A stretch of 63,845 nucleotides of DNA, counting the filler, from Reticulomyxa filosa (Eukaryota > Protista > Foraminifera), in the NCBI GenBank assembly GCA_000512085.1. It is 14 parts of 14 records of this genome, joined end to end, with 100 filler letters (N's around TTAATTAATTAA, not from the genome) between each part and the next. Parts side by side here need not be neighbours in the genome. Positions count along the whole stretch, not along the records: positions 49,491 to 60,041 come from ASPP01020376.1; 13 more parts are not named here. One strand, 5' to 3'. This document shows positions 564 to 62,665 of this stretch, piece after piece. A program made the translations under genes and the position numbers. Under the pieces are notes generated by a model, which was given only the letters and a program-made list of their open reading frames with translations, was not told the DNA's origin and ran no database searches. How positions within the stretch are numbered: the first letter of the stretch is position 1; every line of letters begins with the position of its first letter.

Positions 564-838
564 TACTTTATTTCAGTGAGATATTGTGGTCTAAAATCAA
601 ACTACAATTTTACCAATATAATTAATAAAAAATAAGTGTATGCATCAAAATAGATCTTTATGAATAAGTCTAATTTTTTAATTAAACATTATATTTTTTC
701 TTAAGCAGTCTATCAAATTAACTGTATTTTGTTCGAGCATTAAGAAAAATATTACAAAATTATTTGACAACAGAAATAAAATTAGAAGAAATAAGTTGTT
801 AATTTAAAGAAATAAAATGATATAAAAAAAGTATTACT

Positions 839-1528
839 TCATTTAGGATATCCTTTCTTCTCTATCAACAATTCCCTTTGATCGGCTATTAGTCGGCATT
901 TTGCAATTCGTGTGATAGGCCATTTGAACTTCCGTGTGCTCTTTATCCTTTCACTTTTAGTACAATAGCTTATCAAAGACGAAATAACTTTGGTAAGGAG
1001 TGTCTGCCTTGAGGACTGTCTCATCTTTAAAACAATGCGAAAAATATGTTTCACAAACAAAGTTGTATATTAATAATTTAACACATTAAAAAAATTAACT
1101 TTATTCCGTCGTTTCGCAATAATTTCTTTCCACTTCGGTTTCTAACTCTTTGGCTTTTTCGCTGCTTTCATGGATCTATAAAAAAGCAAACATGTTTTTC
1201 TCTCGAAGAAAAAAAATTGCAATCCATAAAAAAAATTCACTACACATCAGTCCACCTAGTAGCTGAAAATGAAATCACTAAAAAAAATTTTTCACAAGAT
1301 GCAAATCATCACCGTAACAAAAATAACAATAAAATTTTTGTACCTTAAGCTTCTCGCGTTACACAGTTTAGTTTTCCATTTGCACGTTGGATATTCACCA
1401 TTTGTTATTTTTTGACAGATTCGAATCGTTTCATCGATCAAAAACTCCAGCTTTGCACGTCGTTCGACAGTCTGTAGCTTTTTTTGCAAGAAACTTAAAA
1501 AGACAACAGGTTTAACGTTCTCGTTCAA
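839..1528 (-). CDS. Possible small spliced gene of unknown function
   Basis: GC-richer blocks (839-1025, ~1100-1176, ~1345-1528) are separated by T-rich stretches with GT/AG-like ends. No recognisable domain; exon phases not resolved. Confidence 0.25.
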
Positions 1529-2012
1529 AGAGGGAAAGACAAGCCGCGCAGTTTTACTATTATTGAAAATGTTGATTTTTTTGTTAGTTTATTCGATTTA
1601 AGACTGTGGATGAAATTATGCAAATGGGAGTGTTTTAAAAGAAGAATTGAATACAAAGTTTAGAAGCAAAAATGTTTATCAAACAATTACAGCAAGCACT
1701 TTTCGTCATATTATGTAAATGGTCGAGTATAAAAATAAAATCATTTAAAAATATTGCAGTTCATACAAGACAATGTTTTTGCACACCAAAATATCAGTTG
1801 GAACAAAGGGATAATCACTTCAGTGCTGTCTTGTTCCCAAAAGAAAACAGTGTTCAATACCTCGGAAAAAACGTTTTATGGGACCTCATGAAAAAGATGC
1901 AAAAAAATGTGGATGAAGTGGAGGCATATGATCTCCAAAAACAAAAAAAGCAATCACTATATTTTGTCTGGTTGCTAACTTGAAAAAAAAGTGTTTTTAT
2001 TGAAAGATGGAA

Positions 2013-3423
2013 TCAAAATAACTCCCCCAAGAATAAAGTTTTGTCGCTAGAAGCCGAAACAATGATAGGCTCGAATGGATGAATATCCACTTCATTGCAG
2101 GAGCCAGTGTGTCCAGGTAGTTTGTAAAGGACTTGTCCACCCCAAACATCCAAGACATATGCACATTTATCAGAAGAGCCACTGACTATTCTATTTGCAT
2201 CCTTACTCCAGTTGGCCTTGATCAACAACTTTTCAGTGCCATGTAAAGGTCCAAAAAGGACTTTTTTGCATCTCTCATCGCTTTCTTTTAAAAACTTGTT
2301 TAGTGAGTCTTTATTGTCATCGTCATTTTCAGTGGGATTTGGCTTGTCTGCATCTGAAACTCGCCCACTGACAAAAGGTTGAATGTCCCAAACGCGAATG
2401 CATCCATCCATGCCATTGCTCAGCAAATACTTTCCGTCCATGGACAACGACAAGCTTGTGATTGTTTCTTTATGTCCATGCAAGTATGACAACGGCTTAT
2501 GTGACTTTCTGCCGTCCCACACTTTGATGACATTGTCAATGCCCCCTGTATACAATTTCAATGCATTGTCACTCAATGCAACTGCAGTCACTTGATACGT
2601 GCAGTCAAATGTCTTCAATGGAGGCTTCATTCGAATGTCAAATATTTTTGCCGAGCCATCATCCGAGCCTGTATCAATTTGTCATCACACAATTCTAATT
2701 TTTTTTGGTTCTCCCTTTTTTTTTTTTAAAAAAAAGGAGTAAAAAAAAAATTGGTTGCCACGGGTGATCGCATAATTATAAATAATGTGTTCTTCCGTTT
2801 TATTAGTTTGTGTAACATATAAAAACCTGTTGCCAAAAATTGAGTGCCTTTTTTGGTCGGTGAAACGCTGTTGACAAATGACATGTGCGATTTAATCTTT
2901 TTAATTCGTGCGCCGTATTCCACATCCCAAATGGATACTGTTTTGTCTGCCGAAGAGGTGAATAGATATTCGTCACCTCCGCTCCACTGTAGTTGCAGGA
3001 TGCTGTTGGTATGTCCTTTCAATACGGTGTGGTTTTCACAGTCGCCATATACATGCCAGATAAGCACTTGCTTGTCCGCTCCGGCACTGGCCAGGTTCGC
3101 TCCATCGTGACTGAAACGACAAGTGTAGACTGGTCCTGTGTGGCCTTCCAATAACATTGTTGGAGAGTTCAGATTACTTGTTCGTGTTGTCGACTTTTCC
3201 GTTTTTTGTTTGCCACAACAATCGAGTTTTTTAATGGAGAAGTTAGTTCTTTTTTTCTCTCTCTCACCAACACACTGGGGATAAAAGACAAAAACTTCTT
3301 TACTGATTTCGGGTCAAATTTTCCTATCTTGTTCTCTTCGCTTGAGATTATTTCCAAACGAGGTTTTTTTGCTGCTGGATATGTGAGATCTACAGCGAGC
3401 TCTGATAAAGGTCGCTTTGACAT
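2013..3423 (-). CDS. SNRNP40: U5 snRNP 40-kDa WD40 protein, spliced
   Basis: ORFs 3169..3423, 2726..3157 and 2013..2630 carry MLLEGHTGPVY, WHVYGDCENH, YKLPGHTGSCNEVDIHPFEPII and C-terminal SDKTLFLGEL. The intron ending tacag rejoins ATG|SDDG. Confidence 0.92.
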
Positions 3424-4091
3424 TTCGTATTATTGGATATGATAATTATTTTAGTAAGGGGCTCTTTTTTAGAAAAGTCCTGACAGCTGACTTGAAACCA
3501 CTTTTTCAATATCACCAAAAAAGGTATAAATGTCAAAGAAAACAACATTTTAAATCAAATGACACAAAAGCTTGTCCGTTCTTTTATGTGGACTCAAAGA
3601 ATGTAAGAAATTATTATAAAAAGATCAGCAAAGCGATAGCATCACAAGTTCCAACGGCGTGCAAGAAAGTGATACTATTGATAAACCTTAACAGCAAAAA
3701 CAATTCGTTTGAAAACTAAATTAATATAGTGATGTTGGGGCCAACACACAAAACTCTTCATTTTGAAAGCTTTCGGATGTTTCGATCATCTTACAAAAAC
3801 CAGTTGTTGACTGTATCACATGCTTTGACTGGAAGGCACTTAAGGCAACCTCAGACTTTAATTTCACGTTTTTTGTCTCATGGTATTGTGTTTGTAAAAG
3901 TAACCAACTGGGATGTAAAACGACAAAAAATAAATAAAGTTTTGGTTTATCAATGAGAGATAGCATTTTTGGCAACAAAAATGACTTGTAACATAAAACG
4001 TGGTGTAAAGTGTTGAATTTTCTTTATTTCTTTATGAATGATGTTTTAGATAAATATATTTTAGTAATAAGAAAAAGAAAAATTATTTATA

Positions 4092-44985: not shown

Positions 44986-46475
44986 TCATTTTTGTCTTGA
45001 AGCCGCTGACTGTCGTTCCTTGGCAGACGTTTCCCAGTATCTGTGCTGTAGAACTTCTTCAGCGGTGATGCGATCAGCTGCAAACCACTTCAACATCCGT
45101 TGGATTAAATCAAACAGATCGACATGTTCCGGCTTTTTGAAATCGAAATACGTCTAAAAATGTATCAAGCCCATGTGCAAAGAAGAGGATTAAAAAAGGG
45201 AACAAAATGAACCTCCAAAAAAAAAAAAATATGTATACATATATAAATATAAGTATATATATGAAGAGAAACTCCAAGACTTCGGGATTGAACACGGCTT
45301 CGTTTGGCATCTTCCATTCGCAAAGACATAGTTTCAATATGGAACAGTTCTTCAGCTTTTTCATCAGGGGCCAAGTCAATTAATTTCTGTGGGATTTCTC
45401 CAATCATTATTTGCATTTGATTTAAATGATCAATGGAGCAGTGAGTATTAAACACCATTGATCCATGCAAAAACTCTAAAATGACGCATCCAATGGACCA
45501 AATATCTACGGGTCGTTTCCAAGGCATTTCCAACACAACTTCAGGAGCACGATAATGTCGAGTTTGAATGAGATAAGTATAACCATCTCGAAATTTCCAC
45601 GATGCCTTATTGTTTGGATCATACTTGGGTTCGTACACCGCGCTGCCAAAGTCCACTATTTTTATGCGAGTGTCTATTGGATAATATTGCACTTTCTATC
45701 GCAATTCAAACCAGTACACCAACATTAATCCAGTGTCACGATTAACCGTACATATATATTCAATAAATATATTTAAAAAAAAAAAAAATAAACAAATAAA
45801 TAAATATTTGTATGTATTATACACGAAACATTTCCCGCAGTAGTGACTTCTTTCGTGCGCCCATCCACAAATACAATATTTTCTGGCTTCAAATCAGTGA
45901 ATATAATGTCCATTTGATGTAAGACTGAATAGTGTTTCCACACACACACACACACACGTCAATGTTTGTTGTTATTATTATAATATATTTGTTTGTAGCA
46001 TTTGTAAAGTTTTGTTTTGTGTCGAAAATGGAAAACCAAACAGTGAATTGCTGTGCATATTTGTGCAGCCAAGTCTCGGACAATCGTGTCTGGAAATGGA
46101 CGATAGCGATTTTTGGACATGATCGCATAAATGGACGGGCCATACAATCTGAAAACCAAGCAAGGATGGCCATTCCATGTAAAGAATTCCTTCAAGTGAA
46201 TGCAACAGCTACACAAACAAGCAAACAAACAGCACAGTACTCTTATTCATCATTCGTCATGTCGTCCTCTTCTCTCTAATACATATGTATACACGTGGGT
46301 ATATGTATACACATATACTTATATATGCATATATACAGTATGCGCGACTTACCTTTGTCCATCGTCTGAATTGGTGATATGTTGCAATATCTTCAGTTCT
46401 GTCTTAGCCGCTTCAATATATCGGCTTGAGTTTCGAATTACCTTCACTGCAACGTGTCTATTTTCGTCGCCAGCC
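44986..46475 (-). CDS. CLK/LAMMER-like CMGC protein kinase; 5' truncated, multi-exon
   Basis: VAVKVIRNSSRYIEAAKTE, FTWNGHPCLVF, FTDLKPENI, IKIVDFGSA, IQTRHYRAPEVVL, DIWSIGC, DHLNQMQIMIG and DRITAEEVLQH. Stop at 44986-44988. Confidence 0.9.
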
Positions 46476-46508
<33 letters not shown>

Positions 46509-46631
46509 TATACATATATAANNNNNNNNNNNNNNNNNNNNNNNNNNNNNNNNNNNNNNNNNNNNTTAATTAATTAANNNNNNNNNNNNNNNNNNNNNNN
46601 NNNNNNNNNNNNNNNNNNNNNTTTTTTTTTT

Positions 46632-46739: not shown

Positions 46740-49390
46740 ACGCATTAGAATGCGAGAGAAGACAGTCTGATAGTCGACCCAGTAATCAAATTGGTGGAAT
46801 CGATTTGCGAAGTGGACTCATTCTTCCCGTTGCGTCATCAAATTGCATCCAAAAAAAGCTCTCAAAGTCCATCAAAGCAACAGAAGACCAAACAAGTCCG
46901 CGAAAGCGCAAAAGTGAATTCGGTTGCAAGTCCGTCGCTTTCGGCGGCCAATGAAGCATCGCCGCCGATCATGTCGCAGCCCCCTGACATACCTGTGCCG
47001 GACCCTATTAACGAAGCTCTCGACGTGATGGATCGTCTGTTGGACGAAGCACTGGCGAGACCAGCGCCGGTGGGAGACAATGCCGCCATCAACTTCTCGG
47101 AGCCCAATCACAACGCGATATTTGCGCCACAGCAGCCTCAAAGTGTACGCAGTCGAAGTCGCAGTCGATCTCGGTCACGCTCCAGATCACGCTCCCATTC
47201 GCGCTCGCGCTCACGTTCCCGTTCCCGCTCACGTTCGCGCTCTCGTTCGCTCAACGTGGCAGGTCGAAATGCAAACGAAGCAGCTGTCGCAGAGAGGCCT
47301 GAGGCAAATGAAGAGGACGATGACGACGATGATGATGACGATGATGATGAGGAAGCAGAGCGAGAACGCGAGGAGGAAGAAGATGAAGAAGCAGAAGCTG
47401 AGGCTGATGCAGAGCCAGAAGAGAGAGCGAGAAATGACGCAGATATAGAGATAGCAGTCGACCCATTCCAAAATAGACAAGAGGATGCTATTGTCGTTCC
47501 TAGGAATGAAAATGCTGAAGAAGATGCGGAAGCACATGACGAACCCAATCAACAAGATGAACCGATTGCTCCTGAATTGGTCGACGAAATTATTCCTCAT
47601 GACAATGTCCCCGAGTTGCAGGGAGAGCAAGAAGATAGACAGCCATTAGCTCAAGGACACGCTCAATTGGAAATTGCAGAGGATGACATCAACTTGGTAT
47701 ATTGTTACACTAAAAATAAATACAAATGAAGATTTATATATGTTTTCTAACAAAAAATTTGTCTTCTTTTTTTTTTTAAAAAAAAAAAAGGGTTGGCCGA
47801 TCGCCTGGGAGCATCGGGCGGAGATGATGCACCTTTACGTTGGTCCGAGGCAAGAGAAGATATTCCGGAATGGGATAACCTATTCAATGCAATTGAGGAA
47901 GAGGATGACTTGGACGAGGACGATCGAATCCCCTCTGCGTTTGATGCAATGATACGCAGAGGCCAGCCAAACATTCGAGAAGAAGTCGGCGATCTCTACA
48001 ACGTAAACCCACTCCGACAACGCTTTGCTCTTTCAGCTGTCCGAAGGGCATTGCGAATGAATGTAAACATGCCTGTCAATGCAAACGACGCGTTGCTTAG
48101 CAATGCTGGTGCCGTCTATCAAAGAGTAGATCCATTGAACGAATTCATGGCAAGTGATATCGTTGGCTTTAACGCTTTAAATCGAATGCCTCAAGTGGCC
48201 CCGCGTTATTTGTTTGGTATGTTGTATTGTATTTTCCTTTTTGTCGTTCTTTGATGGGGATATATATGTATATATGTGTATATATGTATGTTGTGTGTGT
48301 GTGATTTGTAAGCGCAAGCGCCCTTGAATGAAGGCAATGGGTCCTCCAGTTCCACATTGTTCTATCGTGCTAATGGAAACGAGCCAGAAGCCAGTCGTCC
48401 ACGCTCTTCATTGGCAATTAATCGTTTGATTGAAGTGCCCCCTCGCTCTTATTTCAATAGCAATGATGCCCAAAACTCGTTGTTCCAAGCCCCACCACTG
48501 GATCGCATTGCCCCATCCTCGGCTCAAAACCAACTTTTGTCAAGGAGTCGCCGCAATCAAAATGTAGGCTTGGATGCCATGCAAACGCAAGTGAATAACA
48601 ACTGGGGTCTTCTCACACACAGAATTGAACCTGATCTGACCAATGTGGAAAGACAATTGCACAGTCTATCGATTCAAGACGAGCCTGTCCTGCCCTCGTC
48701 TTCAAGGAATGTGTCTTCCGCGTCTGTCCCACCTGTTGCTTCCATTAATGCTAACAGTGGTATTCTTCATTTCATTTTTTAATTCTATCATTTTGCATTT
48801 TTGAATCATTTTGTTTTGTCGTGAACATGGGGAACAACACACAAACACACACACACACCAAAGCCCTGTCTAGTGCAATGGACTCTGTTCTCGGCAATCG
48901 CATTGCTCGAAACAACAGCTTTGGAATTCCTGCACAGTCATCAGCGCCGTTGGAGATCATTGCCGATACAACGCAACCCCAATCCCAATCCCAATCCCAA
49001 TCCCAGCCCCCCGAAGTGCAACAGCCACAACAACCAGAATCTCAGCCACAGTCCCAACCACAAGGAGCTCAAGTGGAAGCTCAGATAGAAGTGCAAGCAC
49101 CAGTGCAAATACCAGCACAAGCGCCAGTACAAGTACCAGCACAAGCACAAGCACCGGTACAAGAACCAGTACAACCGGCACCAGCACCAGCACCAGCACA
49201 GTCACAACAGCCACAGCATCAAGCAGAAGCTCAACCTGCATCACAGTCTTTTGAACCACAGCAACTGACAGAAATGGAAATGCTTGATGACGAGCTTGAT
49301 GATTACAAGGAAGCTGCAGCTGCAGTAAGTGAAGCGCTGGCGCAAGCTTCCCAATCAACAGTGCCAGCACAGACAGCAACAACAACAACA
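46740..49390 (+). CDS. Large intrinsically disordered protein fragment (RS repeat, acidic tract, Q/P/A-rich region), multi-exon
   Basis: ORFs 46791..47729, 47793..48254, 48324..48782 and 48821 to the contig end are separated by short AT-rich introns. No folded domain recognised. Confidence 0.7.
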
Positions 49391-49586
49391 NNNNNNNNNN
49401 NNNNNNNNNNNNNNNNNNNNNNNNNNNNNNNNNNTTAATTAATTAANNNNNNNNNNNNNNNNNNNNNNNNNNNNNNNNNNNNNNNNNNNNATATTATATA
49501 ATATATATATATATATATGTATATAATTATAATCTTAAAAAAAGTCAAATTTTTAAATATATCCTTCTCTCGAAATTGAAGAAAAG

Positions 49587-52500
49587 TTAACCTCGGTCGA
49601 ACAAAGTGCTCTCATAATCGTTATTGACATTGGCTCTCATCAAAGCGATTCCGGCCCAAAAGAGGGCGGGATATTCATGCAACCTCTGTTGCTGTCGCAA
49701 GGTTTGCGCCATTTTGGACAGCGTGTCCAAGATGCGCATGCATTCGTAAAAGTCTTTGGGAACGCTTTGTTTGGTCTTTTGGTACTTGCTGGCATTGTCC
49801 CACTGTTCGATACTGCCCACCAAGGTAAGCAGCACGACCTTGACAGCGGCGTGGTTGAGCGGATTCAAGAGCTGTCGATACACGTGAAACGCGCGTTGAG
49901 AAATGTCTTGATTGGTGGACAGCACCGCCCATCGCAGAGCTTCGTATCCGATGCGATTGGTCGCCTTCAAATCGGGACTGAGCACTTGGCAATACTTGTC
50001 GATGAACACCCCGCCGTCCATGACGACGGTACCTACACGATCGACGCTAAACTGTTGTCTGGCGACGGTGTATCCTCCATCGTCGTCCCATACGAGCTGA
50101 AGATCGCGTGCTTTTAGGGCGGCCGCGACCGACGCTTCCTCGTAATTGATCTGTTCGTTTTGCAGACGGTCAAAGTCTCTGGGAGAACATAGCGTGCTCA
50201 TGATGCGCACCAATAGATGATGCAGCTGTCGGGAGTTGGAGCTGAAAGACAAAAACGTGGAGGCATATAGCACGAGCACGGGGAAATCGCGTTCTATCGG
50301 CCCGCTGTCCACACCAATGATATCCACAAGTAGAGACGCTGCTAAATCTGCACGACGTTCAATCTGTCGAGGAGACATTACATTTGTTGTCTTGGCATTC
50401 GCACTGACCTTACCAGCATTGGCATTAGTATTTGTATTTGTATTGGAATTGGAATGGGAATTGGAATTGGTATTGGTATTGGTATTGGAAGGGGTACCAT
50501 TGCCATTGCCATTGCCATTATTATCATTGACATTCGCAGATACACTGGGATGTGAACTCGTCCCATAAGCGGAAGAGTGGGACCGAGGAAGATTGGGCTC
50601 TCTTCGGGGTACAAACAAGGAATCCTCGTTCTTATCGTTATCAATGTGAGCGGCGTAGCCATAGTCCAAACTACGCTCGTCCTTGGACTCGAGACGACTA
50701 CCATCTTCCATACGCTCCTCGTAACGGGTCAGAATTTCGCCACTGCGATGGCGGATCTTCAGATTGGACGTGGTGTACTCGTTAATACCAATGGTCAGCA
50801 CGCGAAGCAAGGTGCGGACAATGTACGATGTGATGAGCTTCCTCGTCAACGTCAACGTGGGCTGGTTGGTCGACACCGAATGGATATGTGTCTTCTCCGA
50901 AGGCCCTTCGTAGATGGCAAAGATGATGTTTTTGCAAGCGGGCAAAATCTGCGTGTAAAAATGGAGCTCTGGTTTGTGCGCCTGCATCATCAACGACTCC
51001 ACGGTTTCGATCAAAAAGTCCAAGATCGCAAATAGGTTCTCGTAGCTGAATGCATTGGCCAGCTCCTTCCATACCTTTAGCAAACTAGTTTGGAACTGAT
51101 CCGTCGCCGTCGTCGTCACATGAAACAGATTGCTTAGCAACAGCAGTGTTTCATGCCCTCGCAACTTGTGTTTTTCAAAATGACCTTCGATCTTTTTCTT
51201 CTTTTTCTCCGTTTTACTTTCTTGCGTTGGATCTGGACTTTGATTTTGATTTGGAGTTGGAGTTGTTGGAGTTGGAGTTATTGTAGTTGTTATTGTTGTT
51301 ATTGTTGTTATTGTTGTTCCTGTTGTTGTTGTTGTTGTTGTTGTTCCTGTTGGTGGGGTCATTGTTGTCAACTTTTTCTTCCCTTTTTTAATTTTGATTA
51401 GGTTTTTATTTTTATGCTTGCTCTTCCTTGTGCTTCTCCTTGGCTGCGCCTCACTCGTCACTGCACGCTTCATTTCCACTTTGTGCTTTTTCCTTGGGGA
51501 CTTGGGCTTGCCGCTGGCCGCCGTGGTGATGCCGAAAGACATGGACCGGTTCAAACTAAGATCGTCGTCATCCAACTTGGCCTCCGACTCACTTACATTC
51601 GTGGACGACGCCTTAAGCAGCACAAGCGTTATTTCCTTCTCATCCTCCTCGTCGTCATCGTTGTCGTCATCATCATCGTCGTCGTCGTTGTTGTTATTGT
51701 TATTGTCATTGTCATAACTCGCTTCTTCTTCGTCTTCCTCATTGCCGTCATCTTCATCATCGTCGTCGTCTTCGTCGTCGTCATCGTCGTCGTCATCATC
51801 ATCATTATTATCGTCATTATCATCTCCCCTTTCGCGTTTGTTGATTGACAGCTCGTGCTTATCATTCTCATGGGAGTATTCGTTGTGTTTGTTTTCATTG
51901 GAGTCAATCTGTATTGCAGGACTATCTCTGCTCTTACTCTTGCGCTTGTCTTTGTTATTATTCTTATCCTTTTCCTTATTCTTATCCTTATTCTTATCCT
52001 TATTCTTATCCTTATCCTTATCTTTATCCTTTTCCTTTTCCTTTTCCTTTTGCACAGAAATGCCTTCGACAATCTCATTGGGTCGCGAGTGACGATAGTA
52101 ATACAAGTACTGCTGGTCCATGTTGGCCTTGTTTGCACAGTGCAGATGGATGACTCGAGACCAGGGCTTCAAAAACGTGGTGATCCACTCGCGACGATCA
52201 CTGGTTTCGGTGTACTTGATGGCGTCTCGAAACAGGGCCCCGCCGATGGAGGGACAGTACCTCGCGAACAGATGCGAAATGTAGCATCCATTTTTGCGCA
52301 CCCACAGACTCATCGAAGACTCGAACGCGAATTTGAACTTGTCAATCTCGTTGACGAGCGCCTGTCCCACGATAATATGAGCTAACGACCGCAGCAACAA
52401 GAAGCCACTGAAGCGGGTGTCGGGATCGGGCTCGATGATCATGATTAGTCCTAAAAAACAGCAGACGATGCGAGTATTGGAAAATATTGAATAAGAATCC

Positions 52501-54552
52501 TTCTCCAATGGGACGCTGGATTTTCCAATCGTTGTGTTGGTATCTCGACTCGACCACAGTGAGACGGTCTCCATAAAAATTGATTTCCATCACATCTACA
52601 ATTGCACGCAGGAAATACGAATGGGAGCAATAGAACGGGTTCGTCGGGTTCGTGTGCGACTCGATCGACTTTTCAATGTAAAAACTGAACAGCTGTTCAA
52701 ACTGGAACTTTAGCAACGGGGTCAATACTTCAAACGAGTTCTTTTCGGCGGCCACCAACAACTCCAACACTGTTTGATTGGGTGACTCTCCAATCTCACG
52801 CTTCAATTCCAAAGGGATGCTATTCCCACCACGCAGGAAGTTGATTACGTAGTTGTCTTGTCCTCGCAGCAACGTCGATGGCGTTGATTTGGCGGCTTTA
52901 TTATTTTCATTGAAATTCTGACTCATCTTTTTCAAATTGGAAGCAGACTTGTTCATTGATTTAACCTCTTCTTCTGTTTCTCCTGTTCCTTGTTCTTGTT
53001 CTTCCTCGCTTCCAGTGATTCCCAAATATTTGGCCGGGAACACTCGTCCCATGTTCAACAGGTATTGCAACGCGGTGAACACCGACACACTGACAGCTCG
53101 TTTGCGTTGGATGATAATCTGCGGGTCTTGCTCTTCAAAGTGCACGGAATGGATATCTTTGTCCACGTCATCAAAAAATTTCAACAGCCATAGCAACATT
53201 TGAAATCGCGTTTCTTCGTTGGTTTGATTGACATAAGGCAGCTTGTCGTACTCCACTCGATTTTGCAAGAGCGCTTTTTTATTGTGTTTAATTTTTTTAC
53301 GGAATTGGCGGATGTTATTTTGAATTTCTTCTCCGACCATTCCTTCATTTGGAAAATGCCAATAAATGTGGCGAATTGCCGGGTGCGTTCCAATTCGAGA
53401 CAGACTTCGCAAGAATAACGCATAGGTTTCGGCCAAGTCTTTTTGTGTATCGAACCATCTCATCTTCTCCATGCGATCTTGTCGGAATGCTTCCATCCGT
53501 AGCAAGTCAATGAAATCAAACATCTTCTTCACCAGTCCTTTATTGCCATGATAAATGCCCGCCGGAAATTGGTTCACTTCCTCCAATCGTCGCAATACGT
53601 ATACTATATCTTCAATAACTTTTGTGCGCCGTCTCGTGGGCGATTTCTGAAACACGTCAATGATGCTATGTAAAACCAAAGGAATAATTTCCCAATGGAT
53701 CGTCTCCAATATCTCTGCAATCACGTTTCGCAGCCATGGACTTTCCTCGTATAAACAATTCCAAAAATGGTGATTGAGATATTTCTTCAAGTCTTTTTTT
53801 GTGTCTTCAAACCATTCCCCGCCCGTCCCGCGAAATGCCGGTGGCTGATAGTATAGTCCAAAGTTGTCGGTGGTGCTTGTGACATTGCGTCTCTTGAACA
53901 AACGACTGGTGGCATTGATGGCGCCATTGGAAATCGAAAAGGGGTTTGGAATGCCTTCACCAATCAACGAGAATAGCAAGGTGTGCAAATTGATCCAATG
54001 GATTCGAAGTGGCGATTTATCTCGCCACTCTTCGGTATTACTCCATCCCGATTTGCCTTTGATATTCACCGGCGGCATGTCTCCCAGCAAGTAATAGATA
54101 AAACAAGACGCCGAATAGATCGTTTCATGCATATGTGCTTCCACCACTTTCTTGGCCAATTGCGACAATATCGTCGGTACTAATCCTTCCATACGTATCA
54201 CAGAATGAAAGCCCAAGTCTTTTTGGCGATTGATGTTTGTGCGCATTCGATTGCGTAGCAACACCACACCGCTAGATGCCAAGGACATACGTTGAAATGT
54301 CACCTCATTGCTGCGCTCGCTCTCGAATTCGCTACCATTCATTCCAGGTAGACCACTCGCCATGTCATTGTCTGCAGACATCATTCCCGACACTTCCTGA
54401 TTCACCTTCATCAGTGCCATTCGACCAATACTTCGTCCGTGGACGTGAATCAATCCACCAATGCTTTTGTTTAATGTGGACATATTATCTCCTCCGACCG
54501 CGTGCATCGATGTCTTGGAATATCCTTGTTTACTATCATCTCCAATTGATGC

Positions 54553-54586
<34 letters not shown>

Positions 54587-57510
54587 GCTGCTGCCGTTGC
54601 AACGGAGGAAATAAGTTTGGATGGTTTGGAAGTCATCCTAATCAAATCACTAAAAAAAAATGGCGACGCTACGTCTTTTTTTCCGAGAACCGTGTTGTAT
54701 ACGTCAGCCAATTTGAGCAAAAACAGGTATGCAAAGTAGCGTACATGTCCGTCGTAGTGACACAGCAACACCAAGCCATATCCATCTGCACGAGGGAACC
54801 ACTGCAACCACTCTGGCAATTCTCGAATTTTAGTGTTCAAATAACTATTGGGCACCAGTTTGGATGTCTTCTCGTCATGGTGATCTTCATTTTTGGCATG
54901 GACTTTTTCGTCGCTCTCCATTGCGCTTGGCGGCGATAGGCCAAAGGCCTCGCTGTTGTTTTCTCTTCGCAAGATCATTTCCTTTTTGAAAAAGTCCATC
55001 AAATGCGTAATCGTTTTCAACAGCATTGACAGACACGCAGGAGAGTGGTAGTCGCGATGACTCAACATGGCGATGAAACATTGAACCACTTGAATGCAAA
55101 TGTCGTCTGTTTCATTGACCGAATGATACTACGTAATGCCTGTGCCCGCACATTGGCGTCGCGATGGAGCAGCCATTTCCCCACAAATCTACCGGTCATA
55201 CTGCAGTTCTCCGGGGTCGGCTCCCACAGACTGTCACAGTTCATGTGTGGTGCCAATCGCAAACAGTACATCAACAAGGTCAATTGAATGTCTGGAAACA
55301 CTGGCAACGCTTGCTCCATTGACATGTCTCCACTGTCCCAATCCAACAACAACAACTTTTCCACGTGTTCGTCAAACATTTGCTGCTCGTCTTGCACGGT
55401 AAAGATGTACAATGGGAATTCTGTAATCGCATCGCCAAACGTTAACAAATTCTTTGCTATTGGGATATGCTTTCCGATTTGGATAAACAACAATTCCAAT
55501 GCTGGTCGCACCTGCACTTTGAATTGATGTAGACTGTCATCCAATTGATTTGGCCCGTTTTGGAAAGACAATAAGTGTTCCCGGAACATTCCCTCCGGAA
55601 CACAGATGAAATTCAAGGCATACACGGCAATGAACATCCTTTCAATGGTTTCACTTTTATGCGTTTCAATAAATTCGATGATGGCTTGTCGAGTGCTTGA
55701 GAAATTGTGTACGGCGAGTTGGACCATGCATAAGCACAACAAATGCACGATTTGAGCGTCGGTGGCATTTTTCGAATTGTACGTCCTCATTGGACGAAAG
55801 ATCTTGGAGCTGATAAGTTCGCAAAGTTCGATCGGAAATTGTTCCTTCAGACTGCCATAGGCCTGTTCCAAGCGATCAATGGTAGGTCGATAGATGACTG
55901 TCTCTTGCGGCAAGTGACGCACCGAAGGTGAATGGCTGTCATGACTGCGACTATAATGACTGTTGATTTTGAAGTTGGCGGATTCCAATTGCAAAATGAA
56001 CTGATCCCACGTGCTCCCACCCCCTCGCAGTAAATGCAATAAGTCCGCAAGGTGTCGAGGGGTTGTGCGTCGGTTGCTGAACTTGAACTTTACGCTTTGC
56101 GTGATCCAAGCTCGAATCGTTGTGGATTTGCCGCCGCGAAGCAGTTCCGTATTTTGCAGTCGCGTACGTCCCGAGTTCAAATGCTCAATGTTTTTCCCCA
56201 ACTGATCCAGTCGCTCTCGCGTATCTTTTAAAAACGTGGCGAACAGCAGCTTTTCCAAACGCTGGTCCATTGGAAGAGACCGAACCGTGTGTTCCAACGC
56301 GTGCAGACATACTTGATGACGATCACGGGCCTCCTATTTTTGACAAAAGGGTAGTCAAATTGCATTAGCACGCTTATCGAATAATTGTCATTATACAATT
56401 CAATATATATATATATATATATGTATATATCTGTGCTAAACTTTGGATTTAATCAACATCGAATTTAACCACATCATCTGCGACTCAATCGGAGTAACCG
56501 TGTTCATATCGAATCGCACGTACTTGGCGCCATTCAAAATACCGATCCTTTGGTCTTCTGTGGCCGCCTTTTCATAGCCCTTTTGCAGTGCAGACACCAC
56601 TTCGGTGGAGAAATACGGGGTGATGAGCGAGATCAAAAGACCCCACTTTCGGCGTCGACGAAGCTCGAGTGTCTGGCTCAGCGTGTCTCCAAGAGCGGAC
56701 CGGGACATCTGCGCTAATTTGGAAACCAATTTGTGAATCATTTCTTCGTGCAAGTTGCCCTTCATCCCACCCATTCGACGACGTTTGATCGACAGCAAAG
56801 CGGGGTCTGCGAAATGCAACACGCTCGCCAGCACATCGGCCATGATAAAGTCCATTACATAATTGGCCAGTTCTTGCACCAACGTATTGGACTGTTTTAA
56901 ACAAAACAAAAGACAAGTAAATAAATTAAATAAATAAATAAATTAAATATATATATATATATATATATATATTTAATTTATTCGTTTCGAAACTAAATGA
57001 TGTGAGATATGCTGTTTCAAAAATTCCAATCGAAAGGAAGTAGATTTGTTATTTAATCCGAAAATGCCATCTACACCGACTGGAGTGAAGGGGAAGGGAC
57101 TATTCTTTGTTGTGCTACGACTGATGGGAGTGGTGGCTTGTGAGTTTGGCGTGGAGGAGACGAGCCAAGTGGAGTTGGAATCGCTGTCGGACTCGATGAC
57201 ACTCTTCACAAAGGAGTGGAACGACAGGGCCCCCAATTTGGAGACACGTTGTAAAATAGGCAAGTACGTGGGGACCATATTTTCGGGAAATTCCTTCCAC
57301 AAGGGATTGAATTCGGCCCAAAAGTTGCGGCTGGATGCTTTGGGCAGCGAAGAGGAGAGCAATGAATTCATTTGTTTCCCGACGTCTCCGACAAGAGACA
57401 GTAGCATATTTCCAAGCATTCCTTCACTGCTAACAATTTCTGTTTCTCCCAAAATCATATTACTTTGAATTGGAATTGACATTGACTCATTGGAATTACC
57501 AAGTTGTTGC

Positions 57511-57542
<32 letters not shown>

Positions 57543-59628
57543 GTCGTTAGAATCATTACTTAAAAACAATCTTCCGAAAATATTGCCTCGATTTTGTTGT
57601 TGCAATTCCTGGTCATTTTGTTTTTCCTCTCTTTTTTTTTCAATCTCGCGGACTTCCTTTTGCAATTGTCCATGTTCAGTTTGAGCATTTTTCAAAGCCT
57701 TTTTCAAATCATTGATTTCGTTTTTCAGTCGTTCAAAAATTTCATTTCTTTCTTTGCAATTATTGGCCTCATTTTCCAAGGCTTTGAGCAAGAGATTGCT
57801 ATCCATCGCGCGAATCACTGCAATTGCGTCGTTGATCCCATAAATATTCGTACCTTCTTTCACTGCCGTCAGCAGCTGCAATAGATCAGACTTGACATCA
57901 TTGCCACGGACTTTGTCACTTAAAAGCCGACTGAGCGAGTCGCCCCTGCCTAGTTGTTCCAATATCGGAATCACCTTTACCACCACCTCTGTACTTTCGT
58001 CTATTTTTCGAAGCAACTCTGTTCTTCGTCCATTGTTGCTGTGTCGCTTCTTTCCGTCGCTTTCATTTGCAAATGATGGCGTTGTCGTTGTCGTTGTCGC
58101 TGTCGCCGTCATCGTCGTTGTTATCATCGTCGTCATCGTCGTCATCGTCGTCGTCGTCGTTGTCATTGTCATGCTCACGCTGCCCGAGTCAAACGACGCC
58201 GTGTTCTCTCTGCTTTCAATGGTTTCATCTCGCGATGAAGTGTACTCATGCACGCTTATCTTTACGAAACGATAGTAAGTCGACGCGTTCCTCGAATTCA
58301 TACTTACGCGCTTATCGCCGCCGTTATTGCCACTGCCATCAACCAGGTTGGACATCTTGCCGCCAGAAGCGTCCATATCCTCCTCGTCTTCGTCGTCCTC
58401 GTCATTGGGAAGATTCCCTTTGCCAACAGACATGGGCCCATTTGCAAGACCTCCATTTGTGTTGTTGTTGTTGTTGTTGTTGTTATTATTACCATTATTA
58501 CTATTAATATTGGTATTACTATTGCTATTAACGTTATTGCTATTGCCATTGTTATTGTTATTGTTATTGTTATTATTATTGTTATTGCTGCCACTGCTGT
58601 TATTGCCATTGATGTTAATATTGCTATTGCCACTAACACTAACAATTCCACTCACATTGACATTGCCATTGCCCGAGCTCAGTTTACCGTTGTCCACAGC
58701 TGACAAGGGGGCAAGGGGGTTCGAAGTGAAAAACGGGTCGTGGCGGTGAATATTTTGAATTAACGTATAGTACTCTTTTTCCATTAGGTTTTGTGTATAA
58801 TGCGAAGAGTACTTCACGGAGTCGTCCCATAAAATCTTTTTCAAAAAGTGCAAGTCGCTCAGTGACAAGTACACTAAGTCGTCGCGGGGAGACTTTTCTC
58901 GGATTTTGCGATCCATCGCAAAGTGGTGTTCTAATGGCAACACGTTGCACAGTTCTTTGAAGAATTTCTTCACCTTGGCTATTTCATCCATTATCAAGTC
59001 ATTCAATGACACCATAAAGGCTTCTTTCGCCCCTCCGATTATTTGATTGCTAATATTTTGCAACAACTTTATATACACATACATATGTAATATGATCGTT
59101 CACTTGGAGTGTTATACATTACATTTAATATATGCATATTAACAATATATACATACACATGTATATACATCTACAAAAATATTCGTTTATTTATATATTT
59201 TTAAAAAAAAAAAAAAACTTTGCAATCAAGGTAAATTTTCGACGGATTTGTTTGGCAAAATTGCCGTGGTTTTTGGCTTGTTCATGACCAAAGAGTTGGA
59301 TTCGCGGATTAAAAATGCGCAAGAAAATGAAGCCACCCACGAGTGACTCGGCAATCTTTTCATTGTCCTGTTGGTCGTACGTTTTGCTATGGGCCAGTTC
59401 GGTGAGCTTCTTACATAGCATGCGCAGGCCCATTGGATAGCTTTCTGCTTGCATTATCCGATCCATTATGTATTTGATGCATTCGCCCAGCTTCGCCCGT
59501 CTCTCTGCACACAGATTTTGGATTTTGGGATCGTTTGGGTCTTTGATGTCGGCCGACTCTTCTACTTGGATCAATGTCGCCTCCCACACCTAATCAAGTC
59601 AAGCCATTGCATTTTATGTTATGGAATC

Positions 59629-59677
<49 letters not shown>

Positions 59678-60023
59678 GTTATTATTATTGTTTGTTTTTC
59701 TTTCATTCGTCTCCCTCTCTGTTACGTGTACTCCTCCACTGCAAACAAACAACAACAAAAAAAAAAATGTTGAATGGTGATCATAATGTCATAACAGCTT
59801 CAGGATCGATTTCCAAATCCTCCCCAGGATTTTGGAGGCAAAATTCTCCGCACTCTTTTACCGTTTTGTCAATGAAATCACTGATTTGCTGTCGCTTCAG
59901 ATAAGCTTGCAACAGTTTCGTTGCGGGTGTGTTATCACGTAAGTATGTGGTTATATTGTCGCATTGGTCGTATTCGAATTTCATTACATTCCGTTTTTTT
60001 TTTTTTTTTTTTAATTGCCCCAC
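49587..60023 (-). CDS. Giant RasGAP-domain plus Furry/Tao3/Mor2 (MOR2-PAG1)-like protein; truncated at both ends; frame changes at ~55120 and ~52455
   Basis: RasGAP motifs: TYLRDNTPATKLL, LEIDP, GGFIFLRIFNPRI, TLIAK|LLQNISN. Furry-like motifs: YVMDFIMADVLASVL, GILNGAKYVRF, ALRWAVLSTNQDISQRAFHVYRQLLNPL, YPALFWAGIALM. Confidence 0.8.
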
Positions 60024-60141
60024 TTCAACGTTTTACAAAGGNNNNNNNNNNNNNNNNNNNNNNNNNNNNNNNNNNNNNNNNNNNNTTAATTAATTAANNN
60101 NNNNNNNNNNNNNNNNNNNNNNNNNNNNNNNNNNNNNNNNN

Positions 60142-60860
60142 AAAAAAAAAAAAAAAAAAAAAAAAAAAATAATAATAACATTTTTGTATTAAAATAACGC
60201 CACGAACGAAGTGTGACATAACAATAATAGCTCAATGCAACGAGACCCGAAATTTTTTGCAAGGTTGCAACGTCCCATTGCGCGGGCGCATTTTCGAGCA
60301 GATCCGACACCAGTCGCGATTTTTCTTTGACCAACAAAGGGGTCACCCAGTTCGCCCATTGCTGTATCCATGTGAATGCATAGCCCACCAATGAATCGGG
60401 GTACATTTGTATGTAACGCGTATACAACGGGAGCGTCGTCGGGAAAAACCCATAATACACACCGCAATATAACAGTGCACTTTTCTTTATTCGAATGGCG
60501 GAGTCGATAACTACGGGTGCGTTGTAAATCCATTGGTAACGCACATACGATCCCATCTTTCCAAACACAAACCTTTTCTGCTTCTTGTCTTGCTCTTCGT
60601 TCGATTCCTCCTGGCTATTGCCATTCGACTCTTCTTTGTGCTCACTTACTTCCAATGTCTTCCTTGGATTCGATTCTTCGTATGTCGACGGAACTGATGC
60701 TTGGAAGTCGATGTCCGCCGGCTCTTCCTCGCTAAAAGGGTTGTCGCTTACATGGCGGGCAATTTCGCTTTTGTTTTCACCTGAAAATATATTGTGCTGT
60801 CCAAACCATATTGGTAAGGTTACTCAATAAACAACAAGTAGCTTGCAAAATGCACCCATA
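60142..60860 (-). CDS. Hypothetical protein, possibly membrane-associated; 3' truncated, start uncertain
   Basis: ORF 60086..60655 has an acidic linker followed by aromatic/hydrophobic segments; family not recognised. Confidence 0.55.
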
Positions 60861-62251
60861 CATCAAGATTTGGCGCCAATTTTCGAGTATTGTCTTCTTT
60901 CATTTTAGAATATGATCAACTTTTTGAATCTTGTTTTTTCCCCGCCTCACGGACTTAACTTTTTTTTTTGTACAGACAAACAAAAGTTTATCGCTTTTAT
61001 TTACACCTCATATCTGATGAATACAGCATCTTCCAACAATAAAACACAATCAAATTTTTAATTTTTCATTCATACAACAATACGAACCAGAAATGATTTG
61101 CATTACAGTTTGGGATTAAGAGAAAATGTATTCGTTAAATCCAAGTAAACTCTTTATTTTTCATTACAAGTTTTGATTGTAATACGATTGATGATTTGAT
61201 TCTCTTTTGTGTCGCTCAGAGGAAATCAAATGAAGAAAATATCTTTTACTAATAAAATAAAATATTCACCAACAAATTCATTAAAAATACAAACAAAATT
61301 AACACATTATTGTAAAGTGAATAAATAAAACAAATAAATAAGAGAGATTGAAGAGTTTAATGTTAAATTGCCACTTAATGCTTTGCTGGCCGATATCTCG
61401 CCTTATACTATCACTTGGGTAGAAAATCGACTAATTTCATGACAACGATCATCCCTTGTTTATTCAAAATTGCAATATTTGTACCTTACGATTACTTAGT
61501 ATCACTTTCTACATACAAACGAATATTATCTAGCATGCAAAAAAAAAAATTAAAGTAGCGAAAAAAAATGAAATAAGTTTGTAAAATTCGCATAAGTATA
61601 GTTTCAGTATCTTCTAAACTTTAATCCCAGCCAGTATTGTATTAATTGCTAATCTCAGCGGAACAGAAAAGTATACAATTTGATCAAGAACGTGCAATAA
61701 TGTGATTCAGCAATCAAATGAGAATACATTTATACTATGACATTCTTTTTAACATTTCGTGTTTGCCATCCAATTACCTCATAAAAAGTTGGTTTCGTTT
61801 TTTTCCCTTCTTAAAAGGTATTATGCCTGTGGGGCCTATGACTGAAAAAACTTTTTCTTTAGAAAAAAAGAACAATCCTCGCAACCTTCCTTTTGAGGAG
61901 GTCTATTGTAGACTCTCTAAAAAAGTGACGTACATACAAAGAAATCTTTTTTGATGATCATAAGATAATTTCATTTTTGTGAGCACGTTAAATATTTAAA
62001 AAATCCCAAATAAAATGTGTGCATTATTGTCTCACTGTCGTGTCCATTATTGTGAAATAAACTGCAAGAAAATAAACAACAAAAAAAAGTAGATGCTATG
62101 TACAAAATAAAACAGTAAGTTGTCATATTTTCTTTTGTTGTACGCAAGGACACAACTATTTAAACTAAAATAAACAAAGTAGTTATTTATTGTTTCAAGT
62201 ACTTGTTAGGTTGTAACTAAAGACCTGTTGTGTTTTCAAAATTTCCCGATC

Positions 62252-62665
62252 ATGTACAAAGAACCTCGGAAATCTGCGAGGCAAATAGATCCTGAAGAAT
62301 TGTTAAGAAAAACGAGTGATGTGAAAGATATTACCGAATTATTTGAATTAACACGTGTCTTAGGGAAGGGTGCGTCATGCGAGGTGTTTGAAGCAAAATC
62401 TAAAGAAAATGGGCTCCTCTACGCGCTCAAGCGAATGCATTTGAGTGACGCCGAAAACAAAACCCGTTTCAAAACAGAAGTAACGATCCTCAACACATTG
62501 AGACATAAGAACATTGTAAGGTAAGAACGGGTTTACTTTTCAAGCATTTCGAGTGTTCCAAAGAAAGCTGTGTGGTGTAACATAAAATAGATTTCATCAA
62601 GCTTATTCCGATGGCAAAAATTTATTCATTTGTTGTAAATTGTGTAATGGAGGGGCTTTGCTTGG
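62252..62665 (+). CDS. Ser/Thr protein kinase (CAMK-like), N-lobe; 3' truncated
   Basis: FELTRVLGKGASCEV, YALKRM and EVTILNTLRHKNIV, then a GT-AG intron and CKLCNGGALL. Confidence 0.88.

Follow-up and report, generated by a model that had tools for sequence, protein, structure and literature searches.

Whether a Ras GTPase-activating protein (RasGAP) domain and a scaffold of the Furry/Tao3/Mor2 family are parts of one protein is the question raised by a locus of the foraminiferan Reticulomyxa filosa. This RasGAP–Furry locus occupies the contig piece 49491-60041 of the window, which is the whole stretch of 63,845 nucleotides that was analyzed, and is flanked by spacer blocks at 49391-49490 and 60042-60141. 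A first-pass annotation had proposed that both parts are fused in one giant protein, and this was confirmed: RasGAP is joined in frame to the Furry/Tao3/Mor2 scaffold, the last part of the GAP domain and the first Furry helix are encoded in a single stop-free exon, and seven relatives share the join. In an exon model built from homology and GT-AG sites, with X read at three frame breaks, the gene is located on the minus strand and its five exons (A to E) encode 3,277 residues without any stop.

The join lies in exon C (56994-59066, minus strand, 691 codons), which runs from the end of the GAP domain via a linker and the RGCt region to the first Furry helix. The uninterrupted 703-residue open reading frame described before at 56973-59084 is present as the part starting with the ATG at 59084 of a stop-to-stop frame of 708 codons (56973-59099); the true exon extends from 59066 to 56994. 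This frame is free of stops, while the two alternative frames contain 45 and 61, and exon C has a G+C content of 0.43 versus 0.12-0.25 across the four introns. The probability of such an open frame arising by chance from base composition was about 8e-20, a figure that the repeats make too small, and it is homology rather than open-frame statistics that settles the reading of exon C as coding. The first 89 residues of exon C correspond to the end of the GAP-related domain of IQGAP2 (E 0.0045), in agreement with the earlier view that the open frame starts with the last RasGAP helices, and the GAP domain was matched by homology to about 58940. The tracts and the coiled coil that had been noted in this frame were located as an N/D/T low-complexity linker at about 58700-58000, an RGCt helical triad from 57986, and a long RGCt helix or coiled coil at 57800-57618 followed by a Q tract, before the first Furry helix begins at 57431 according to the alignment to relatives. 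A structure model of exon C, which had low confidence (pLDDT 46) and was used for helix positions only, predicted the triad and an 80-residue helix. The unfused Furry protein P0037 starts at the first Furry helix of exon C (P0037 residues 10-153 match). No RNA records were listed for 52600-59100.

With a 423-residue frame as query, two of 4,226 candidates were returned, the Reticulomyxa paralogue P0001 and P0002 of Bolivina argentea. P0002 carries RasGAP at 406-602, aligns collinearly with window positions 59993 to 54784 and has none of the long N/T tracts; linkers are short and microsatellite-like tracts absent in P0002, P0016, and P0054. A profile of the C-terminal scaffold (four sequences) gave 82 matches among 1.84 billion representatives, 16 of them at least 1,900 residues long; the 82 included canonical Furry proteins. 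RasGAP is present in six of these 16, in five according to Pfam and in P0008, which is cut inside the GAP domain, according to a local profile. When this local GAP profile was applied to a set of 100 proteins, besides the six fused ones only P0002 and their cluster-mates matched. The seven relatives sharing the RasGAP–Furry join are thus P0002, P0008, P0016, P0027, P0029, P0033, and P0054. One further record, P0088 (3,350 residues), is translated from an Amorphochlora transcript of 10,406 nt and has RasGAP at 274-454 and MOR2-PAG1_C at 3028-3257. Residues 750-1725 of P0002, used as query, returned only P0002 among 5,305 candidates.

The RasGAP half begins with exon A (59796-59990, minus strand), the first on the contig, which encodes the finger region (Pfam PF00616 4-70, 36.8 bits) with the arginine-finger codon at 59939-59937 and is collinear with P0002 407-473. 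Its 5′ splice site was not identifiable; an A-run adjoins the contig end. Intron 1 (59590-59795, GT-AG, phase 0, 206 nt) contains an AAT microsatellite and is followed by exon B (59219-59589), which encodes the RasGAP core (PF00616 95-201, 43.2 bits) with FLR at 59325-59317; both Pfam matches were above the cut-off. The last two bases of exon B are part of a split codon, with a one-base frameshift at the junction to exon C. Intron 2 (59067-59218, GT-AG, 152 nt) has a run of 15 T adjoining the donor. The motifs quoted in the first-pass annotation were located at 59945 (finger), 59325 (FLR), and 56852, 49949, and 49670 (Furry-like).

With residues numbered by alignment to p120GAP, fixed by F901 in PMC12871552, the putative arginine finger aligns with R789 and is kept in 7/7 sequences covering the site, and FLR is retained in 8/8 fused sequences. 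Within the motif FLRxxxPAxxxP the first proline is kept in 8/8; the glutamine of the helix after FLR is kept in 7/7, and the KE loop of the window, GAKEAFM, matches GAKEPYM around K949, with K949 kept. Judged from finger, FLR, and KE loop, GAP activity is likely.

With respect to the class of this domain, the clusters of the Atlas nearest to P0002 341-880 were proteins of 686-798 residues with RasGAP plus RasGAP_C (0.95; 211/256 features). The orthologue P0016 shows a RasGAP_C trace (PF03836 13-87 of 137) at 20.6 bits, below the cut-off of 26, and an RGCt region after the GAP domain, i.e., triad and long helix, could be aligned in all fused members. GAP1 proteins have the order GAP domain, RGCt triad, RGCt long helix, CT (PMC13299636), and like the GAP1/Sar1 RasGAPs (S. 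pombe Gap1, Dictyostelium IqgC) the fused proteins have a GAP domain with finger and FLR before triad and long helix. In contrast to them, the fused proteins comprise about 2,300-4,000 instead of about 700-800 residues, the alanine of the FLR motif is replaced, and the CT domain (about 90 residues in IqgC) is absent. There is no room for it between the long helix and Furry: 31-70 residues separate the long RGCt helix from the first Furry helix in the five fused members measured, a stretch that is of low complexity in the window. By its sequence, the RasGAP half is of the GAP1/IqgC type, but because the CT domain is lacking it should be termed GAP1-derived rather than plain GAP1. According to the alignments, Furry took the place of the GAP1 CT domain at one common point in the fused members.

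Two other known systems resemble the fusion. The closest solved-structure matches to the GAP domain were the GAP-related domains of IQGAP1/2, and IQGAPs also carry the GAP domain inside a scaffold protein; however, they have Thr in place of the finger and YYR (PMC12871552), whereas the fused protein has Arg and FLR. Domain scans of the fused proteins found none of the CH, IQ, and WW domains of IQGAPs. With the Arg finger and FLR present instead of Thr and YYR, identity as an IQGAP was rejected. The NF1 scaffold has a helical fold, and neurofibromin (NF1)/Ira resembles the fused protein in having RasGAP on a giant helical scaffold. Neurofibromin/MNF was also rejected, since window pieces, P0002, and 11 long relatives had no match even with the E limit set to 1 or 0.5; the region tested for this feature is occupied by RGCt helices in the fused proteins.

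The Furry half continues from exon C across two short introns. Intron 3 (56892-56993, GT-AG, phase 0, 102 nt), across which tblastn of P0001 and P0002 stays in frame, leads to exon D (56442-56891, 150 codons), where the equivalent of MOR2-PAG1_N starts according to profile-profile alignment to canonical Furry. Intron 4 (56334-56441, GT-AG, phase 0, 108 nt) precedes exon E (49592-56333, about 2,245 codons), which encodes the N-terminal HEAT/ARM solenoid and the middle region of Furry and contains D/K/T/N tracts. The earlier description of short introns leading to more than 2,000 residues thus holds, as about 2,400 codons follow.

The assignment of this half to Furry/Tao3/Mor2 was also upheld. 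Full-length hhalign of seven fused scaffolds against six canonical Furry proteins gave a probability of 100% and E 6e-67 over 1,786 columns, extending from 785 to 3273 of the model and from 38 to 1959 of P0044. For the N-terminal part alone, nine rhizarian-type against six canonical sequences gave 99.5% and E 2.4e-22 over 673 columns, compared to 0.7% for a reversed control. A hidden Markov model (HMM) of canonical Furry matched the middle region (model 2744-3271) with 54 bits (reversed, -35), and one of unfused Furry matched the window model with 44 bits, no reversed control being listed. The expectation that MOR2-PAG1 HMMs match was borne out in part: in the window a trace of MOR2-PAG1_mid at about 50435-49860 reached 25.1 bits and MOR2-PAG1_N and _C were above the cut-off in relatives, but with a cut-off of 27 for the trace no MOR2-PAG1 match in the window exceeded its threshold. 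P0001 and P0002 had no MOR2-PAG1_mid match in Pfam. MOR2-PAG1_C was above the cut-off in 5/5 closest relatives of the last exon and 5/6 long fused relatives; that of the window copy lies off the contig. In P0054 of Plasmodiophora, RasGAP, MOR2-PAG1_N (39.3 bits), and MOR2-PAG1_C were all above the cut-off. A structure model of 56333-55110 was an all-helical solenoid (pLDDT 75, pTM 0.78) and resembled importin-beta, CAND1, ARM, and TOG structures (Z 9-11.7; root-mean-square deviation 5.2 and 261 aligned residues at best), a likeness that is generic for helical repeats. Foldseek with this model gave no match at E 0.001, and a sequence search of solved structures (PDB) gave nothing for the scaffold and nothing for canonical Furry. 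The Atlas search with the scaffold placed a MOR2-PAG1_mid cluster first among many tied HEAT families and serves as a lead only. Like Furry/FRY/Sax-2/Tao3(Pag1)/Mor2 (PF14222, PF14228, PF14225), the family has N, middle, and C regions in order, a HEAT/ARM solenoid and, in relatives, a scaffold of 1,700-2,800 residues; unlike these, the fused proteins have the RasGAP-RGCt module at the N-terminus, diverge strongly and contain long low-complexity inserts. On these alignments the scaffold half is Furry, with its N-terminal and middle regions present in order.

What might such a protein do? We lean, by a narrow preference, towards a self-targeting module in which a predicted active GAP switches off a Ras-family GTPase where Furry assembles an NDR-kinase complex. 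Patches of Ras-GTP would recruit the fused protein via its GAP domain, which would then extinguish the very patches that recruited it, while the Furry solenoid would bring NDR-Mob to the same cortical or microtubule site. As a combined outcome, pseudopodial outgrowth would be limited and shaped, with Ras off where Furry steers polarised growth. Precedents exist for both halves: for IqgC, binding to RasG and arrival at Ras patches depend on finger and FLR, and Ras patches at the cortex are quenched by Gap1 (PMC12871552); Furry scaffolds and activates NDR kinases and binds microtubules, and its loss leads to excess branching (PMC7096357, PMC7987989). By analogy with Furry in fungi and animals, NDR/Mob scaffolding is presumed here as well. 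A complex prediction for the GAP domain and the N-terminal part of Furry (both of P0002; alignment not used) had a score of 0.00 and gave no answer.

Several observations weigh against the self-targeting module. In 8/8 fused sequences another residue (R, K, S, H, Y or V) stands in place of the alanine of FLRxxxPAxxxP, and the window and Bolivina also lack the last proline; the K935-equivalent is K in four, R in one, and I in one (P0016) of six relatives, and in the window it coincides with the broken codon between exons B and C. With finger and FLR kept, GAP activity is likely rather than certain, and the likeliest reading of these residues is an active GAP whose specificity may have shifted. 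On the side of Furry, Pfam found no MOR2-PAG1_N match in the window, P0001 or P0002, four foraminiferan-type N-terminal rows alone reached only 76% against the canonical Furry profile, and the profile identity of the scaffold to canonical Furry was 11-12%; with so divergent a scaffold, its partners may have changed. Finally, the fission yeast NDR kinase Orb6 raises Ras1 activity (PMC6740195). Since this effect is opposite in sign to that of a tethered GAP, the coupling logic of the MOR pathway cannot simply be copied, and the fused GAP would act as a brake rather than as a copy of the Orb6–Ras1 circuit.

The same residues also fit a weak or dead GAP serving as GTPase sensor, in which binding of Ras- or Rap-GTP would recruit Furry and the protein would be an IQGAP-like effector for NDR activation. 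The replaced alanine, the inactive IQGAP domains as closest solved matches, and the loss of the K935-equivalent in P0016 speak for it. However, IQGAPs have lost the finger and FLR (PMC12871552), whereas both are kept here across three rhizarian phyla, and likeness to IQGAPs is expected of any GAP1-type domain, so that we regard the sensor as unlikely. Doubtful, too, is an active GAP for which Furry is only a microtubule- or cortex-binding HEAT/ARM platform, positioning the GAP as in neurofibromin and rendering no service to NDR. Animal Furry does bind microtubules, the scaffold diverges strongly from canonical Furry, and its model matches many HEAT proteins, including TOG/CLASP domains, only as a tie; but the retention of all three Furry regions in their order along about 1,900 residues of the template exceeds the needs of an anchor, and NDR activation is a common Furry function in yeasts and animals.

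A different concern is the integrity of this gene copy. Counting against it, the gene model contains three one-base frameshifts, at the junction 59219/59066, at about 55109, and at about 52456, each at a homopolymer run; P0001, P0002, and P0003 read through all three, and inspection of the sequence by eye revealed no splice that would join exons B and C in frame. The frameshifts are probably assembly errors. That the copy is instead a young pseudogene within a genuine family would fit these breaks and the presence of at least three related genes in Reticulomyxa, but is improbable in view of 3,277 codons without an in-frame stop, five donors and four acceptors that are all intact, and conserved catalytic residues; the location of every break at a homopolymer points the same way, as does the fragmentation of the assembly (13 spacers within 64 kb), but natural homopolymer indels occur too, so that this is not decisive. 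That the fusion is only an appearance created by two adjacent genes or by wrong assembly across AAT/ACG repeats is scarcely credible and is refuted for the family, because, for all the microsatellite-like tracts abundant in the linker and the annotation of a Reticulomyxa paralogue as the RasGAP-less pieces P0001 and P0003, the same join occurs in seven independent records, one of them a full-length transcript (from Amorphochlora), and P0001 still has the RGCt helices upstream of Furry.

The contig does not hold the whole gene. Intron 5 starts with a GT donor at 49591 (phase 1) and is cut by the contig end (49491-49591), and because the contig is bounded by spacers on both sides the N-terminus and the MOR2-PAG1_C region are missing. 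Relatives have about 110-400 extra N-terminal and about 450 extra C-terminal residues compared to the contig model, from which a whole protein of roughly 3,850-4,150 residues can be estimated; P0003 continues for 457 residues beyond the point matching the contig end, with PF14225 above the cut-off. The closest R. filosa proteins show 57-71% identity to the gene product, none being identical. At least three paralogues of the scaffold, annotated as fragments, are present in this species (P0001/P0003, P0004, P0005). On a contig of 18.4 kb, one such gene is divided into two halves, RFI_05119 and RFI_05118; RFI_05119 begins inside the linker and keeps the RGCt helices.

As to distribution, organisms were assigned to four of the fused relatives: the foraminiferan Bolivina argentea (P0002), the chlorarachniophyte Amorphochlora amoebiformis (P0029), Cercozoa sp. 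M6MM (P0033, from a metagenome-assembled genome), and the clubroot protist Plasmodiophora brassicae (P0054). All four belong to Rhizaria and span Foraminifera, Cercozoa, and Endomyxa, and RasGAP was found in 0/7 long canonical Furry matches. With a foraminiferan query and these four relatives, the data suggest that the fusion is absent outside Rhizaria. Two scans of metagenome contigs confirmed none of 391 and none of 177 pattern matches. The earlier idea that the fusion suits a cell building reticulopodia proved too narrow, as Amorphochlora, the cercozoan, and Plasmodiophora have it as well; for the same reason the fusion predates foraminifera.

A scaffold tree was calculated from 21 sequences and 1,733 columns with LG+G4, leaving out fragments below 1,150 residues and most near-duplicates. 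The nine fused or foraminiferan-type rows formed one side of a branch with a support of 78/89 and with long branches, by which a single origin is neither rejected nor proved. The pattern is consistent with one ancient fusion of stem-rhizarian origin, for which the shared breakpoint is a stronger argument than the tree. More tentatively, and as a possibility we hold the less probable, the fusion goes back to a single event in the rhizarian ancestor, is a signature of the supergroup as a whole, hard-wires Ras-GTP extinction to Furry-NDR and is core to filose and reticulose pseudopodia. The Plasmodiophora protein P0054 is the most compact form (2,305 residues), lacks low-complexity inserts and has the longest tree branch. 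P0037 (2,639 residues) is a Furry protein without RasGAP (MOR2-PAG1_N 80 bits, _C 69 bits) that carries a terminal RGS domain (53.5 bits, above the cut-off). It thus represents another case, separate from the first, in which Furry is joined to a domain that switches off a GTPase; P0037 groups with the fused proteins in a divergent Furry group (support 100/100).

Each half is of a known kind, and what is apparently new is their union, which seems to be ancient in Rhizaria. A full-text literature search, whose coverage leaves out most subscription journals, found no paper on the fusion, in line with the first-pass annotation, although a passing mention may exist. In this search 'RasGAP' and 'Furry' occurred together in a single paper, once each and on an unrelated topic, and five locus tags in none. 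A Reticulomyxa RasGAP (ETO28351) is noted, and only noted, in the available part of PMC4374526, and in the main text of a preprint on radiolarians Furry is mentioned solely within a reference. The domain string is already visible in the automatic annotation of the Plasmodiophora protein; database entries either label such proteins 'Ras-GAP domain-containing' or present them as two pieces, and this labelling by RasGAP alone or splitting of the gene has kept the fusion hidden. Furry is among the most conservative eukaryotic scaffolds, and the excerpts of the reviews consulted describe no catalytic domain on it. Its fusion, kept in Foraminifera, Cercozoa, and Endomyxa, is a clue of the Rosetta-stone type, hinting that Ras-family switching takes place where the Furry-NDR pathway acts; previously, the two were linked only indirectly (Orb6-Sts5-Efc25-Ras1). 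The protein is a first candidate regulator of rhizarian pseudopod shape, and the fusion could serve as a rare-genomic-change marker for Rhizaria.

A few further features were noted elsewhere in the window. An intron-split protein kinase at 45168-46570 (minus strand; Pkinase 54 bits), the motifs of which look CLK/LAMMER-like, is on another contig and not linked to the RasGAP–Furry gene. Acidic, RS-repeat, Q/P/A-rich open frames at 46752-49390 (plus strand) contain no Pfam family above the cut-off; a nucleocapsid match of 27.8 bits (cut-off 30) lies on the RS repeat. A 245-residue frame without a Pfam family (60089-60823, minus strand) and a kinase N-lobe (62210-62524, plus strand; 38.9 bits) are located on the contig that follows the RasGAP–Furry piece.

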